Part shown: one piece after another, positions 23,205 through 52,553 of the stretch
Layout: every line of letters begins with the position of its first letter
Position numbering within the stretch: the first letter of the stretch is position 1
Assembly (NCBI RefSeq): GCF_054482595.1
Contig: NZ_JBTHVH010000001.1
Source: a plasmid
Direction: 5' to 3' (one strand)
DNA: 64,000 nucleotides
Notes under the pieces: generated by a model
Told to the model about the DNA's origin: nothing
The model's input: only the letters and a program-made list of their open reading frames with translations
Databases searched by the model: none
Made by a program: the position numbers and the translations under genes

Positions 23205-23366
23205 ATCGCCCCAATGAATCGTGATTTATAGAGCGATTTAGCTGTTAGCCGCGACAGGCGCGGCGGTAAGCATGGCTGGGCCTAGTCCTCCCAGACAAAC
23301 CACCGAGTTGCCAGGTTGACCATGCGCCTAAGTGGCAACGCCGAAGTGCGTTACGAGCTTCCAGTT

Positions 23367-23392
23367 TGCCCATCTTCGGGTGGGCGTTTTTT
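23367..23392 (+). terminator. rho-independent terminator
   Basis: GCCCATC-TTCG-GGTGGGC followed by GTTTTTT. Confidence 0.6.
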
Positions 23393-23858
23393 CAGGGTTT
23401 TCGTCATGGTTAGCGACTTTGCGGCGGTTTAGAAACTGACCATTAAAGTAAATGCAAACGATGATCTGATGATGGTAGCGGCCTAAGAAACCAGATGCCA
23501 CGGGGTATGAGTCGTCCCCCGTCAAAAAAATCGACCGCAGAGTGTCCCCGTCTGTGTATTAGGGAACGGGGAGGCACAACAGGTAAGGGCGCTGGTGTGA
23601 TTAACCAGATGAACGAGAAGGGGCCATCTGTTGGTCAGCGTCCTTTCCTGTTGCGTTTTCTTTTCAGCGTAACAGCGGTGCTTAACAGCACTTTGGGTAC
23701 AGTTCCACGAATTTACGGGTATATCCCGTCATGCTGAAGGCGCTAATCACGCTGGAAGCCAGGGTTGTGCATCCCCTGTTACCGAATTGCAGCCAGGGCG
23801 CGGTGCGCCGAAAAGCATACGGAGGTGGAAGCCCTCGCCGGAGACGTACCCGGCAAGT

Positions 23859-23934
23859 GATGGTGTAGCTCAGCGGTTAGAGCGGTTGACTGTTAATCAA
23901 CGGGTCGATGGTTCAAATCCATCCACCATCGCCA
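23859..23934 (+). tRNA. tRNA-Asn (anticodon GTT)
   Basis: Manual cloverleaf: acceptor GATGGTG/CACCATC, D arm GCTC-AGCGGTTA-GAGC, anticodon loop CTGTTAA, T arm GATGG-TTCAAAT-CCATC, CCA encoded. Confidence 0.85.
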
Positions 23935-23936
23935 AT

Positions 23937-24012
23937 GCCGGTTTAGCTCAGTTGGTAGAGCGCCTGCCTTGTAAGCAGGATGTCAGCGGTTCGAGTCCGT
24001 TAATCGGCACCA
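23937..24012 (+). tRNA. tRNA-Thr (anticodon TGT)
   Basis: Acceptor GCCGGTT/AATCGGC (one G-U), anticodon loop CTTGTAA, T loop TTCGAGT, CCA encoded. Confidence 0.8.
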
Positions 24013-24014
24013 GC

Positions 24015-24100
24015 ACAACAGGTAAGGGTATTTTGCGACGTCGGAGATCGCCGAGCTTGGCAGAGGGTTCGAATCCCTACGAAGTACCCTTACCGTTGTG
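24015..24100 (+). other. structured tRNA-like element: about 16-bp stem enclosing a T-loop-like GGTTCGAATCC core; not a canonical tRNA
   Basis: CACAACAGGTAAGGGTA pairs with TACCCTTACCGTTGTG; starts immediately after tRNA-Thr. Confidence 0.4.
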
Positions 24101-24744
24101 ATGAAGTGCAGCTCTTTGAAGCAACCAGAAGATAAGCATCTGGCTTCACAACATAAACCGCAGGAACGACCAATAAACGGTAGTCCGTATGGAGAACACC
24201 CCGTTGAGGAAGAGGCCTGGCCGGAACCGTAACCGGCACTACAACGTTGAGAACACTGGCGTAACGGGGTCATATCCCAATCTACGAATAAATGTTGCGT
24301 TGCAGCGTGACAACCAGTGTTCTCAACATTGTGGTGAATGCACAGGCTGATGTGCCGCAACTACAGTAGTGCGCGCTTTGCGGGGCTTGCTACAACCCTG
24401 TGTCGGAGTTCAGCACCGACCATCACAGTTTGATTCTCTGGCATGAGCATAACGCTGAAATAAGTCCAGCCTGGTGCGGCCCGATCACCCGCCGTTAGCT
24501 CCACGAAACGGAGCACGTAACAGGTAAGAGCATTCTCCTGTAACGGGTTCATATCCCAATCTACAGGTCCACCAAGAATGCTCTTTCCGTTGCGGTGAAT
24601 GCGGCTAAGCACACGCGGGGAAATGGTTATATCAGTCCATTCATTTCTCCTTGTTTCCCCGTCCACGGTGGATAACCAGCCAAAGGACACCGGGAGGCAC
24701 CCGGCACCGCAGCTTTTTTATTCGTTAAATAATGGAGTGAGAGG

Positions 24745-24981
24745 ATGCAGAACAATCCGAACAAATGTCGAACGCTATGGGTGCGGTTATATATTTATGC
24801 CGTCCTCTGTTTGATTGTGTCACTGGTTCTGTATGTTTGGCTTTTGCCAAATATGATCTCATCTAACAGCACAATACTTGTATTGTTGGGAGTCCTTCTC
24901 GCGCTCATTTACCCGGCTTTCGCAGTAGTCTTTTTTCGTGAAAAAACCAGGAAATTAATTAATGAAAAAAACGTTGATTAG
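24745..24981 (+). CDS. small membrane protein (two predicted TM helices)
   Basis: 78-aa ORF overlapping the start of the SPFH lipoprotein gene. Confidence 0.4.
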   Translation: MQNNPNKCRTLWVRLYIYAVLCLIVSLVLYVWLLPNMISSNSTILVLLGVLLALIYPAFAVVFFREKTRKLINEKNVD

Positions 24982-27543: not shown

Positions 27544-28541
27544 TGCAATGGAATGAGGAAAAGCCGATGAACATCCTGATCATTGGGCGAAAATTTGCAG
27601 CCATCAGTGATGTGAAAACATATACGGAAATGTGGTCTTATAACCTGGCCTGCGCCTTTAGTGAGGCAGGGGTAACATTGCAATACCATCGTCCATATTC
27701 CCCTGGCGTCGAAAGCCCCGAGGATTATGTTGAAGCTGTGTTGACTGCTGCGACAGCATGTTCTGCGAAGGCCATTTTGGCACCAGGATTGAGGTATTTT
27801 ACTACGGTACCCAGGGAAATAGGCATGCAACTGTGTCGCCGATTCTCTGGATGGGTAGCCCAGGTATATGACGGTTCTATGCTGGATTCGGCACCAGTCG
27901 ATATTACTTTTACTGTCCGCGATGATACCTGGCGGTACCTGGATAATCCAGGCAGGTTAGAGCGTCATAATCGTTTTAACAAACATGTTGGATGGGCAGC
28001 GAATCAGGATCTGTTCCATCTGGAAACCAAAACAGACGATGTTCTGCGTATTTTTGTAGACCACGCTGCATTTGATGTTAGTGGTTTTGATCACTCCTTA
28101 AGTATCCTTATGAACCTTCAGCGTCTGACCGTTCCGTATGAGGCCAGAACGTTGACTGATGACGGATTGGTTACCATTGATCCGGGGAATATTTCGGTAA
28201 CTCCATACAGGCGGACGCCGGTGCCAGCAACCGAATTTGCAGCTGAATTGCGTAAGAGTGACGTTTTTATCGTTACGCATCCCGAAAGCCTTGGATTAAC
28301 TGTTCTTGAGGCGGCAATGTGCGGGGCGTTGGTATTAACGCCTCCCGATTGCCTTCCGCCAGATCGCCTGGCTTTGGTGAACCATATGGTTATCAAGTCG
28401 CGGATTGATTGGGATGAGGTTATTGCTCGCGTTGATCGCGTGAAAAATGCTGAAAAGGTCCAGTGTCACACCTGGTCGGCAATTGCGGAAAAGATGCTTG
28501 AGACGTTTATCACGCAGAAACCGTCGTGCGGTAACGGATAA
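27543..28541 (+). CDS. glycosyltransferase-like protein (GT-B type C-terminal motif)
   Basis: ESLGLTVLEAAMCGALVL resembles the E-x7-E region of family-1-type glycosyltransferases. Confidence 0.4.
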   Translation: MQWNEEKPMNILIIGRKFAAISDVKTYTEMWSYNLACAFSEAGVTLQYHRPYSPGVESPEDYVEAVLTAATACSAKAILAPGLRYFTTVPREIGMQLCRRFSGWVAQVYDGSMLDSAPVDITFTVRDDTWRYLDNPGRLERHNRFNKHVGWAANQDLFHLETKTDDVLRIFVDHAAFDVSGFDHSLSILMNLQRLTVPYEARTLTDDGLVTIDPGNISVTPYRRTPVPATEFAAELRKSDVFIVTHPESLGLTVLEAAMCGALVLTPPDCLPPDRLALVNHMVIKSRIDWDEVIARVDRVKNAEKVQCHTWSAIAEKMLETFITQKPSCGNG

Positions 28542-28562
28542 AAAATTGAACCCGTCATAACA

Positions 28563-28587
28563 GAAAAGCCCGAACGCCGGGCTTTTC

Positions 28588-28590
<3 letters not shown>
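28563..28590. terminator. bidirectional rho-independent terminator between convergent genes
   Basis: AAAGCCCG-AACG-CCGGGCTTT with flanking T/A runs. Confidence 0.6.
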
Positions 28591-31734
<3,144 letters not shown>

Positions 31735-52234: not shown

Positions 52235-52424
52235 TGTTTTTTAACTACCGATGTTACATTGAACCTGACCTCTTGCGCCTTGAGGCATTTTCGGTTTATG
52301 CTTATCAGGCACCTCAGTAAAACGGGTGCCGGGATTGGCCTCCCGCTTAAGTCTAAGGCGATACAGACGCCGCTCGCGTCTTTTTTTTGTATCGGCGTAC
52401 ACGCACACCTCTACAATGGTGGGC

Positions 52425-52497
52425 TGTATGGGGCTACCTTCGGGTAGGCTGGTTACCTTGGACGCCAGTAAGGCCAACTCCGTACAGTCCACCGCCA
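52425..52497 (+). ncRNA. c4-like antisense RNA of module B (approximate)
   Basis: Alignable with module A c4 region; specificity element ACCTTGGAC (52455-52463) complementary, with one G-U, to GTCTAAGG at 52351-52358 and 52535-52542. Confidence 0.4.
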
Positions 52498-52553
52498 GCA
52501 AGATTGGTCTCTTCTGCGGTGGTTACATACCAACGTCTAAGGAGGCTGCCAAT

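Follow-up and report, generated by a model that had tools for sequence, protein, structure and literature searches.

The stretch of plasmid DNA considered here (64,000 nucleotides (nt) of contig NZ_JBTHVH010000001.1, hereafter the window) is that of a P1-like phage, and beside its transfer RNA (tRNA) genes it carries four long-stem elements, E0 to E3, which are RNA-level structures on the + strand and belong to a widespread modular phage RNA family in which a conserved “socket” holds an exchangeable tip. An initial annotation of the sequence had pointed out three of these elements next to the tRNA genes, and an inverted-repeat search and folding recovered all three close to where it had placed them; the fourth, E0, lies 5′ of tRNA-Asn. 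E0 occupies 23575-23655 on the + strand (arms 23577-23594/23636-23653, CACAACAGGTAAGGGCGCTG/CAGCGTCCTTTCCTGTTGCG; folding z -4.25), and its tip starts with GTGTGATTAAC. E1 (24014-24100, +; z -5.26) has a stem of about 19 base pairs (bp), CACAACAGGTAAGGGTATTTTG/CGAAGTACCCTTACCGTTGTG: the inverted-repeat arms at 24021-24033/24082-24094 are 13 nt (92%), and the CACAAC/GTTGTG base extends the span to 24014-24100. E2 (24237-24336, +; z -5.13) has a stem of 22-23 bp, CACTACAACGTTGAGAACACTGG/CCAGTGTTCTCAACATTGTGGTG, with inverted-repeat arms of 23 nt (91%) at 24237-24259/24314-24336 and 54 nt between them. In E3 (24516-24594, +; z -4.34) the long stem is CGTAACAGGTAAGAGCATTCT/AGAATGCTCTTTCCGTTGCG, and the base again lengthens the span, from arms of 14 nt (93%) at 24523-24536/24575-24588 to 24516-24594. 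Overall the stems in this window measure 17-23 bp, the + strand folding z runs from -4.25 to -5.26 with 0-1 of 200 shuffles as stable, and the + strand folds better than the minus strand because of G.U pairs. The motif that had been seen to recur is indeed repeated, as AACAGGTAAG at 23578, 24017 and 24519, alongside GTAACGGGKTCATATCCCAATCTAC at 24261 and 24540. A scan of the whole 64-kb window on both strands, set to detect stems of 15 bp or more with a CAAC...GTTG closure, found only the E cluster, a known c4-a1b1 structure and one other site (E3 was recovered at a slightly lower threshold than 15 bp).

Selection on these stems acts on pairing and on one strand. The initial annotation had let its structured elements stand or fall with compensatory changes in relatives, and such changes do keep the pairing. 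In an alignment of 30 arm classes (A1), 90.7% of cells pair, compared with 77.2% in shuffles and 31-56% when partners are slid, and both sides change in 13 of the 19 long-stem pairs; none of 500 shuffles reaches any of these measures. The median helix measures 18 bp between cognate arms and 13 bp between non-cognate ones. Over 68 arm pairs, non-Watson-Crick positions are of the G.U type 146 times and of the A.C type 18 times (p 4e-26), an excess that points to selection on RNA of the same strand as the tRNAs, and where tRNA genes neighbour family elements they are co-oriented with them in 24 of 24 cases. P1-like relatives hold a stem at each position with altered sequence: at E1, for example, GGGTA/TACCC becomes GAGCA/TGCTC, Ro157c2YLVW has the arms GGTAAGAGCATTC/GAGTGCTCTTACC with a different tip, and further arm/tip combinations occur in an E. 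albertii plasmid and a Klebsiella plasmid. At the E0 position, D6, CMS-2020a and Klebsiella plasmids have equivalent elements whose arm sequences differ, the arms in CMS-2020a-like plasmids (AGAATGGGCGGTCGGT/ACTGACCGCCCATTCT) being unrelated.

The elements sit in the untranslated, tRNA-bearing, co-directionally transcribed leader of the C1-repressed ban operon, which is on in lytic growth; this placement follows from the P1 gene order and from Pban lying upstream. Over positions 23300-24800 the identity to Punavirus P1 MH422554 is 99.9%, and that to the P1 reference about 99%. In the P1 record this region lies 3′ of dmt and the C1-controlled Pban promoters/operators, and the gene order runs through a “dicF-like region”, tRNA-Asn, tRNA-Thr, plp and upl (on the opposite strand), tciABC, tRNA-Ile and ban, with tciABC swapped here for a membrane-protein gene and an SPFH gene. 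ARAGORN and Rfam both place tRNA-Asn at 23859-23934 (+) and tRNA-Thr at 23937-24012 (+), and E1 begins 1-2 nt past the CCA of the latter. A literature search found no P1 small-RNA or transcript map covering the E1-E3 region.

E0 to E3 are not tRNAs, since the calls of ARAGORN and Rfam are limited to three true tRNAs (tRNA-Asn, tRNA-Thr and tRNA-Met), in keeping with the earlier remark that they are not canonical ones. Against Rfam 15 at permissive thresholds, the elements matched no family and gave chance microRNA-hairpin hits only. The further suggestion of an uncharacterised RNA family fits the strong covariation, the excess of G.U over A.C and the lack of a match in Rfam 15, and neither an Rfam family nor a paper describing a long stem with an exchangeable tip was found. 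The elements are in fact the 5′ parts of larger repeated units, each made of a stem and a closed two-hairpin domain; the initial annotation missed this, as it did the kinship of the last unit with STnc100/PasD and the wide spread of such elements beyond P1-like phages. Sampling with the 3′ flank TTGYGGTGAATGCRYAGGCTGAT, as found after E2, gave at least 120 IMG/VR contigs, mostly temperate-phage contigs of 35-60 kb, and in almost all of them a long stem precedes the flank. The sample spans 39 arm classes and about 70 unrelated tips, and its units share one anatomy. Many are preceded on the 5′ side by a small hairpin or the 3′ end of a tRNA. At its base the stem closes with CA(C)AAC...GTTG(Y)G, and CA(C)AAC is followed by a bulged A or mismatch; at the inner end GCAUUG/CAGUGC is the usual pairing, its U.G wobble being conserved. 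The stem of a member is about 17-22 bp long, variable in sequence yet paired throughout the family: most of the 78 distinct elements have 16-22 bp, and the stems of a first sample ranged over 15-27 bp. The tip is hypervariable and 20-110 nt long across the family. On the 3′ side of the stem there normally come GUUGYG, GUGAAU and then the two-hairpin domain, closed by pairing of GUUGUGGUG with CACCACAAC.

The family does not depend on tRNAs, as a tRNA lies within 1.5 kb of only 24 of 121 motif instances. Its units occupy the leaders of long operons, with either cI/pL ahead of them, or Q/pR′ ahead and the holin behind. On the upstream side, lambdoid contigs most often have cI-type repressors and Q antiterminators, and on the downstream side an early-left gene and holins. 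The HK620 unit is flanked by pR′ and the annotated late terminator tQ, a position that makes it part of the short late-leader transcript, and the unit of Klebsiella lambdoid phages comes after a tRNA cluster that is itself downstream of Q. ESCO13, a virulent rV5-like phage, has a stem directly 3′ of tRNA-Thr inside a 10-tRNA cluster, so that a junction of tRNA-Thr CCA and long stem is common to ESCO13 and to E1 here, and the ESCO13 tip is that of Klebsiella lambdoid phages at 83% identity. RefSeq leaves the unit regions of the family unannotated.

The domains that follow the stems are of more than one type. After E1 there is a reduced closed domain (24095-24152, +), which runs from GTTGTGATGAAG through the hairpin CCAGAAGATAAGCATCTGG (24125-24143) to CTTCACAAC and is 95.5% identical to Klebsiella plasmid-prophages. 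After E2 there is a type I domain (24328-24429, +), built as ATTGTGGTG, AAT, a hairpin, a variable stretch, a second hairpin and CATCACAGT; its hairpins are GCACA GGCTGA TGTGC (24340-24355) and GTCGG AGTTCAGCA CCGAC (24402-24420), corresponding family-wide to GCRYA-GGCUGA-URYGC and GCCGG-AGAUCAGCA-CCGGC. In all type I domains the two loops are complementary (GCUGAU in loop 1, which is fixed by the search motif, and AUCAGC in loop 2; GCUGA and UCAGC in the domain after E2), which suggests a possible intramolecular kissing loop, whereas type II domains have no clear loop complementarity. The type II domain after E3 (24589-24713, +, with a U-run to 24719) is STnc100-like and ends the non-coding array; it comprises GTTGCGGTG at 24589-24597, the CCGGGAGGCACCCGG hairpin at 24690-24704, and CACCGCAGC with T6 at 24705-24719. 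Type II domains match the plan of Rfam STnc100, and this one has the UGGUG/CACCA closing helix, the first hairpin, the CCGGGAGGCACCCGG hairpin and the U-rich 3′ end. The Rfam model matches 24591-24711 at 35.9 bits (E 8e-6), over model positions 31-147 only and below the gathering score of 47, and P1-like relatives score 38-43 bits. By this partial match the last domain of the array is a putative, sub-threshold small RNA (sRNA) of the STnc100/PasD type. In its minimum free energy (MFE) fold (z -6.3) the full E3 unit forms the hairpin and the long stem, and GUUGCGGUG pairs with CACCGCAGC to close the domain ahead of the U-run.

STnc100 (RF02076; EcOnc27, sRNA103) and PasD share with these domains the (G)UGGUG...CACCA helix, an AAU linker, a hairpin, a variable stretch and the CCGGNAG..CCGG hairpin, as well as a site in phage leader or “moron” regions that is often beside tRNAs; on contig L060, true STnc100 copies alternate with tRNAs and one long-stem unit. 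They differ in that the STnc100 model begins about 30 nt upstream of UGGUGAAU in AU-rich sequence and leaves E1-E3 outside it, and type I domains, with their GGCUGA/AUCAGC loops, go undetected by the model. STnc100, EcOnc27 and PasD are Hfq-dependent sRNAs of 80-240 nt (PMC8550237; PMC12711010; PMC4104026), PasD being a recognised relative of STnc100 (bioRxiv 10.64898/2026.05.13.724894; PMC8550237). Hfq-bound prophage sRNAs, the STnc100 equivalent EcOnc27 among them, are known to be concentrated in the neighbourhood 3′ of pR′ (PMC4104026; PMC12711010), and PasA is reportedly cut out of a longer transcript (bioRxiv 10.64898/2026.05.13.724894).

Where recognisable, the tips resemble parts of tRNAs. 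The E1 tip holds an anticodon-arm-like hairpin (24035-24051, +; GCGACGTCGGAGATCGC) and a T-arm (24063-24079, +; GAGGGTTCGAATCCCTA). As RNA the hairpin is GCGACGUCGGAGAUCGC, with four standard pairs and a C.A mismatch (5 bp, GCGAU/AUCGC, in contig L102) and a 7-nt loop that has U at its second and A at its sixth position, and the T-arm is GAGGGUUCGAAUCCCUA; the whole tip recurs inside other arms in the lambdoid contigs L102, L057 and L171. The cores of the elements had been described as T-loop-like, which is apt for E1. It does not hold for E2 and E3, whose cores have a 3-bp GGG/CCC stem with the 7-nt loop KUCAUAU and are anticodon-arm mimics because of their match to the anticodon arm of initiator tRNA. 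The hairpins concerned lie at 24260-24286 (+) in E2, where a second hairpin follows at 24294-24314 (+), and at 24537-24567 (+; CCTGTA-ACGGGTTCATATCCCAATC-TACAGG) in E3; both present the 19-nt loop ACGGGKUCAUAUCCCAAUC, closed by CGUA/UACG or CCUGUA/UACAGG. Lambdoid phages have the counterpart ACGGGCUCAUAACCCAAUC, with different covarying stems closing it (109 instances across 17 contexts), and within it CGGGCUCAUAACCC equals the E. coli initiator tRNA anticodon arm in 14 of 14 bases (three G-C pairs and the loop CUCAUAA). Among 67 distinct tips, the initiator-like motif is found in 11, T-loop motifs in eight and neither in 48. The earlier idea of tRNA-derived RNAs is thus plausible as far as the tips, with their mimics of a T-arm and an anticodon arm, are concerned. 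The tips were also considered as real tRNAs and rejected, the sole default ARAGORN call among 160 family elements being a flanking true tRNA; some stem-and-tip units are called tRNA-like only at a relaxed 80% threshold. In one tip class (L005 2858-2932, L017, L024, L116; L129 2490-2575) a 7-nt terminal loop holds a 6-nt palindrome, which is GGGCCC in Klebsiella lambdoid phages and GUGCAC in ESCO13, and since this double change preserves the self-complementarity of the loop it hints at possible loop-loop dimerisation.

A reading that may account for this arrangement, and to which we give a chance somewhat short of even, is that the stems are processing and display stems for an RNase III-type (double-strand-specific) activity. 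Cleavage within a stem would separate upstream tRNAs from downstream RNA; it would leave the GUUGYGGUG strand available for closing the sRNA-like domain that follows, whose 5′ end would thereby be set, the shared GUUGYG strand switching its pairing partner once the stem is cut; and the tip would come free on a short stem, giving a small stable RNA. On this view tips are exchangeable cargo, here in the form of mimics of tRNA parts (in E1 a T-arm and an anticodon-arm-like hairpin, in E2 and E3 the initiator anticodon arm). This reading is proposed because the pairing is constant and the length near two helical turns, because the stems lie between tRNAs and sRNA-like domains in one long transcript, because E1 abuts the CCA end of tRNA-Thr, because domain copies directly behind promoters lack a stem and because the shared GUUGYG strand could change partner after a cut. 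Stem lengths cluster at 16-22 bp despite 39 arm classes and about 70 tips, as a double-strand ruler would predict. Copies of the domain directly behind sigma-70-like promoters have no stem and a predicted start at about GUUGUGGUG (L010/L052/L126, L125), whereas internal copies (behind terminators, tRNAs or hairpins) carry one, a comparison that uses only the clear promoter-proximal cases as the stem finder missed many stems. That the GUUGYG strand may pair either upstream or downstream is suggested by the differing folds of the E2 and E3 units. The processing signals offered as one possibility in the initial annotation are consistent with these strongly covarying + strand stems.

RNase III processing stems are familiar from ribosomal RNA (rRNA) operons, where they surround 16S and 23S, from the early-mRNA sites of phage T7 and from the lambda N-leader site. 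They too are helices of about 20 bp with small irregularities that flank functional RNA in a polycistronic phage or rRNA/tRNA transcript, and their pairing is conserved more than their sequence; the stems of this window, at 17-23 bp and situated in the ban leader between tRNAs and sRNA-like domains, have that size and placement. Here, by contrast, there are conserved sequence blocks, an exchangeable tip and a family spread across unrelated operons. Several points weigh against assigning them to RNase III. The putative role is read from helix length and position, and the conserved blocks (the bulged A after CAAC, GCAUUG/CAGUGC and GGUGAAU) suggest a sequence-specific partner, which generic RNase III recognition would leave unexplained. 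The MFE fold of the E2 unit retains an extended long stem and its domain is not closed. The cargo is dispensable, in that Ro157c2YLVW has lost the anticodon-arm core of E3. Finally, the sequences of the family sample are mutually related, so that the shuffle statistics given above are inflated, and they were gathered through one fixed 3′ motif, which biases the conservation of the tail and the counts.

Several rival explanations were weighed. If the tips were the functional part and the stems inert scaffolds, the tRNA-fragment mimics (initiator anticodon arm, T-arm, elbow) might serve as decoys of, or competitors for, tRNA-directed host factors, which is compatible with processing stems but which we regard as unlikely on present evidence. 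Such a role would suit the 14-of-14 match of the lambdoid loop CGGGCUCAUAACCC to E. coli initiator tRNA, the occurrence of that motif in 17 contexts and 109 instances with the covarying closures CCUGUA/UACAGG, GCGUG/CACGC and CCUGAUG/CAUCAGG, the retention of the E1 tip inside three different arm sets, the T-loop and initiator-like motifs in eight and 11 of the 67 distinct tips and the tRNA-like calls at relaxed ARAGORN thresholds; phage tRNAs, moreover, are known counter-defences against host tRNA nucleases (PMC11464382). However, 48 of the 67 tips have no recognisable tRNA-like motif, the P1 copies deviate from initiator tRNA at loop positions 32 and 38, the core is deleted in one relative (Ro157c2YLVW), and the target nuclease or binding partner is only a candidate one (anticodon nucleases, PIN toxins that cleave initiator tRNA, tRNA-binding enzymes). 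It is rather improbable, in our estimate, that the helices are passive insulators that shield a leader of about 1.4 kb, never translated, from Rho, RNase E and exonucleases, and that also serve as 3′-trailer hairpins for tRNAs. Only pairing would then matter and tips would drift freely, as the keeping of pairing without sequence, the long untranslated leaders with no conserved ORF (open reading frame) and the hypervariable tips would allow, but such insulation would account neither for the tight range of stem lengths and the sequence conservation at the base and inner end, nor for the invariant GGUGAAU tail, the promoter-proximal copies that lack a stem or the sharing of tips between distant phages (83%, Klebsiella lambdoid versus rV5-like).

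Cis-acting antitermination or processivity signals (nut/boxA-like or put-like) acting on RNA polymerase in long early or late operons seem very unlikely. Units do lie just 3′ of pL-like and pR′ promoters, and the commonest 3′ arm contains UGCUCUUU, the first 8 bases of rrn boxA, followed by a hairpin; yet the stem buries those bases, and E0, E1, E2 and many arm classes lack them, units are also found within the tRNA cluster of a virulent phage, and Q already serves late operons. In the immunity region of HK022 (27600-33600), five module marker motifs gave few isolated matches and none in module context, although putL and putR are unannotated there and no direct comparison with put was made. 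Equally remote, and largely refuted, is the idea that the elements are decayed tRNA genes or other non-functional debris, or sites of DNA-level recombination like those of miniature inverted-repeat transposable elements (MITEs) or attC. The tRNA-like fragments in tips, the mosaic nature of the locus (with tRNA-Tyr or tRNA-Ser genes and insertions in some relatives) and the sharp boundaries between conserved arms and unrelated tips might be taken that way, but the strong covariation and the 146:18 G.U asymmetry indicate selection on + strand RNA, the arms differ between copies (39 classes) unlike the terminal repeats of MITEs, the CACAAC/GTTGTG ends misfit the attC core GTTRRRY with no integrase linked, and conservation extends from P1 to lambdoid and rV5-like phages.

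Least credible of all is that the region codes for proteins on the minus strand and that the hairpins are incidental. P1 records do annotate plp (a putative lipoprotein) and upl here, and minus-strand ORFs of 125 and 109 codons over E1-E3 (23983-24360 and 24361-24690), where P1 has plp and upl, are present in the window. By tblastn, however, these frames are broken across relatives, as the initial annotation had suspected in calling the ORFs spurious: the DNA homologous to plp is split over two or three frames in L002, L132, L133 and L006, and the upl frame differs even between this window and P1. In addition, the 3′ end of plp is antisense to tRNA-Thr, RefSeq lists no gene here for P1-like plasmids or E. 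coli prophage copies, and selection acts on + strand pairing. Because their frames are not kept in relatives, plp and upl are probably spurious annotations and not genes.

Two other known systems bear a likeness to the family. Y RNA-like RNAs (YrlA, RF02553) likewise combine a long stem formed by the two ends with a tRNA-like module that has a T-arm, and they too occur in phages and near tRNA-related functions; they differ in the order of the tRNA-like part, in that no Ro/Rsr context exists here and in that most tips are not tRNA-like. Identity with them was rejected, as the sole RF02553 match (25.6 bits; gathering score 69) spans tRNA-Asn and tRNA-Thr and not the E elements. ROOL and GOLLD are large, ornate and highly structured phage RNAs, often beside tRNA genes. 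They share with the E units a phage-borne, frequently tRNA-adjacent and highly structured character but belong to other hosts, resemble the units neither in sequence nor by model and have no Rfam match here, and the E units are short repeated modules, not one large fold.

A stretch of about 0.7 kb in P1, which with the lambdoid phages counts among the most thoroughly studied viruses, annotated as two minus-strand genes (plp and upl) or left blank, is thus an RNA module instead, and one that temperate and some virulent phages share (at least 120 viral contigs). This corrects the P1 annotation, adds a putative upstream processing or display module to the STnc100/PasD sRNA family, and gives a concrete, testable handle on the maturation of phage tRNA clusters and leader sRNAs. 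Tips that are tRNA-fragment mimics carried as cargo would, if true, tie the family to tRNA-targeting defence systems. A broader conjecture, which we consider improbable as it stands, is that the non-coding leaders of P1, lambdoid and some large virulent enterobacterial phages form arrays in which exchangeable elements mimic parts of the translation apparatus (the anticodon arm of initiator tRNA, a T-arm or elbow, and the tag frame without a tRNA-like domain described below). Such mimics would be carried on or between processable long stems and co-expressed with phage tRNAs, and they would work against, or make use of, host systems directed at tRNAs, ribosomes or trans-translation.

Further features accompany the elements in the leader. 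A small hairpin (24220-24237, +; GCCGGAACCGTAACCGGC) stands before E2 and another (24499-24513, +; CTCCACGAAACGGAG) before E3. The locus is mosaic (L002 1640-1726; L003 2414-2498; L006 3241-3325): among relatives there occur an extra tRNA-Tyr between tRNA-Asn and tRNA-Thr, a tRNA-Ser/Sec-like gene with a long arm that separates the E2 position from that of E3, and a 160-nt insertion before E2. At the upstream end, the “dicF-like region” of the P1 annotation (23301-23402) ends in a canonical terminator (23368-23392) directly 3′ of Pban, and because of this terminator the ban operon may first yield a short DicF-like RNA, in which case transcription would have to read through to reach the tRNAs and E1-E3. 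Elsewhere in the 64-kb window there are three C4 antisense RNA matches (2122-2207, +; 52412-52499, +; 58868-58953, -), together with two matches to the c4-a1b1 target and one to isrK (2001-2053, 59022-59074 and 52309-52386); the presence of all these in one window suggests more than one immunity-I-type region.

Upstream of E0 there is also a module (23413-23486) with a frame resembling the tag of transfer-messenger RNA (tmRNA). The frame (23454-23486) reads GCA AAC GAT GAT CTG ATG ATG GTA GCG GCC TAA, or ANDDLMMVAA (the E. coli tmRNA tag is ANDENYALAA), and is preceded by AAAU with no start codon. Its flanking motif GCGACTTTGCGGNNNTTTAGAAAC occurs in at least 120 viral contigs (IMG/VR), and the module is also present at L130 1760-1835. 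Among 75 distinct copies, drawn from P1-like, lambdoid and 155-kb phages, 74 have a frame of exactly 10 codons, with variants such as ANEEMYLAVA, ANDDVVLMAA and ANDEQFLAVA. Tag types that exist in several nucleotide versions vary between these at synonymous sites only, and some copies of the module begin right behind a promoter. Homology to tmRNA was rejected, as the alignment to E. coli ssrA covers only the tag and a few bases upstream. Nor was a tRNA-like domain detected nearby: ARAGORN -m found no tmRNA within 1.5 kb of the module in 128 instances, and the Rfam tmRNA_permuted model gave only 24 bits with the 113-nt tRNA-like part missing. A literature search turned up no account of tmRNA-like tags in phages. 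Behind the module, lambdoid and 155-kb phages have a hairpin with the loop GGUGUGAUUAAUAAU (23546-23573 in the window), whose closing stems covary (GCCC/GGGC versus GGCGGGAG/CUCCCGCC), and in P1 the related GUGUGAUUAAC is found at the start of the E0 tip (23595-23605).

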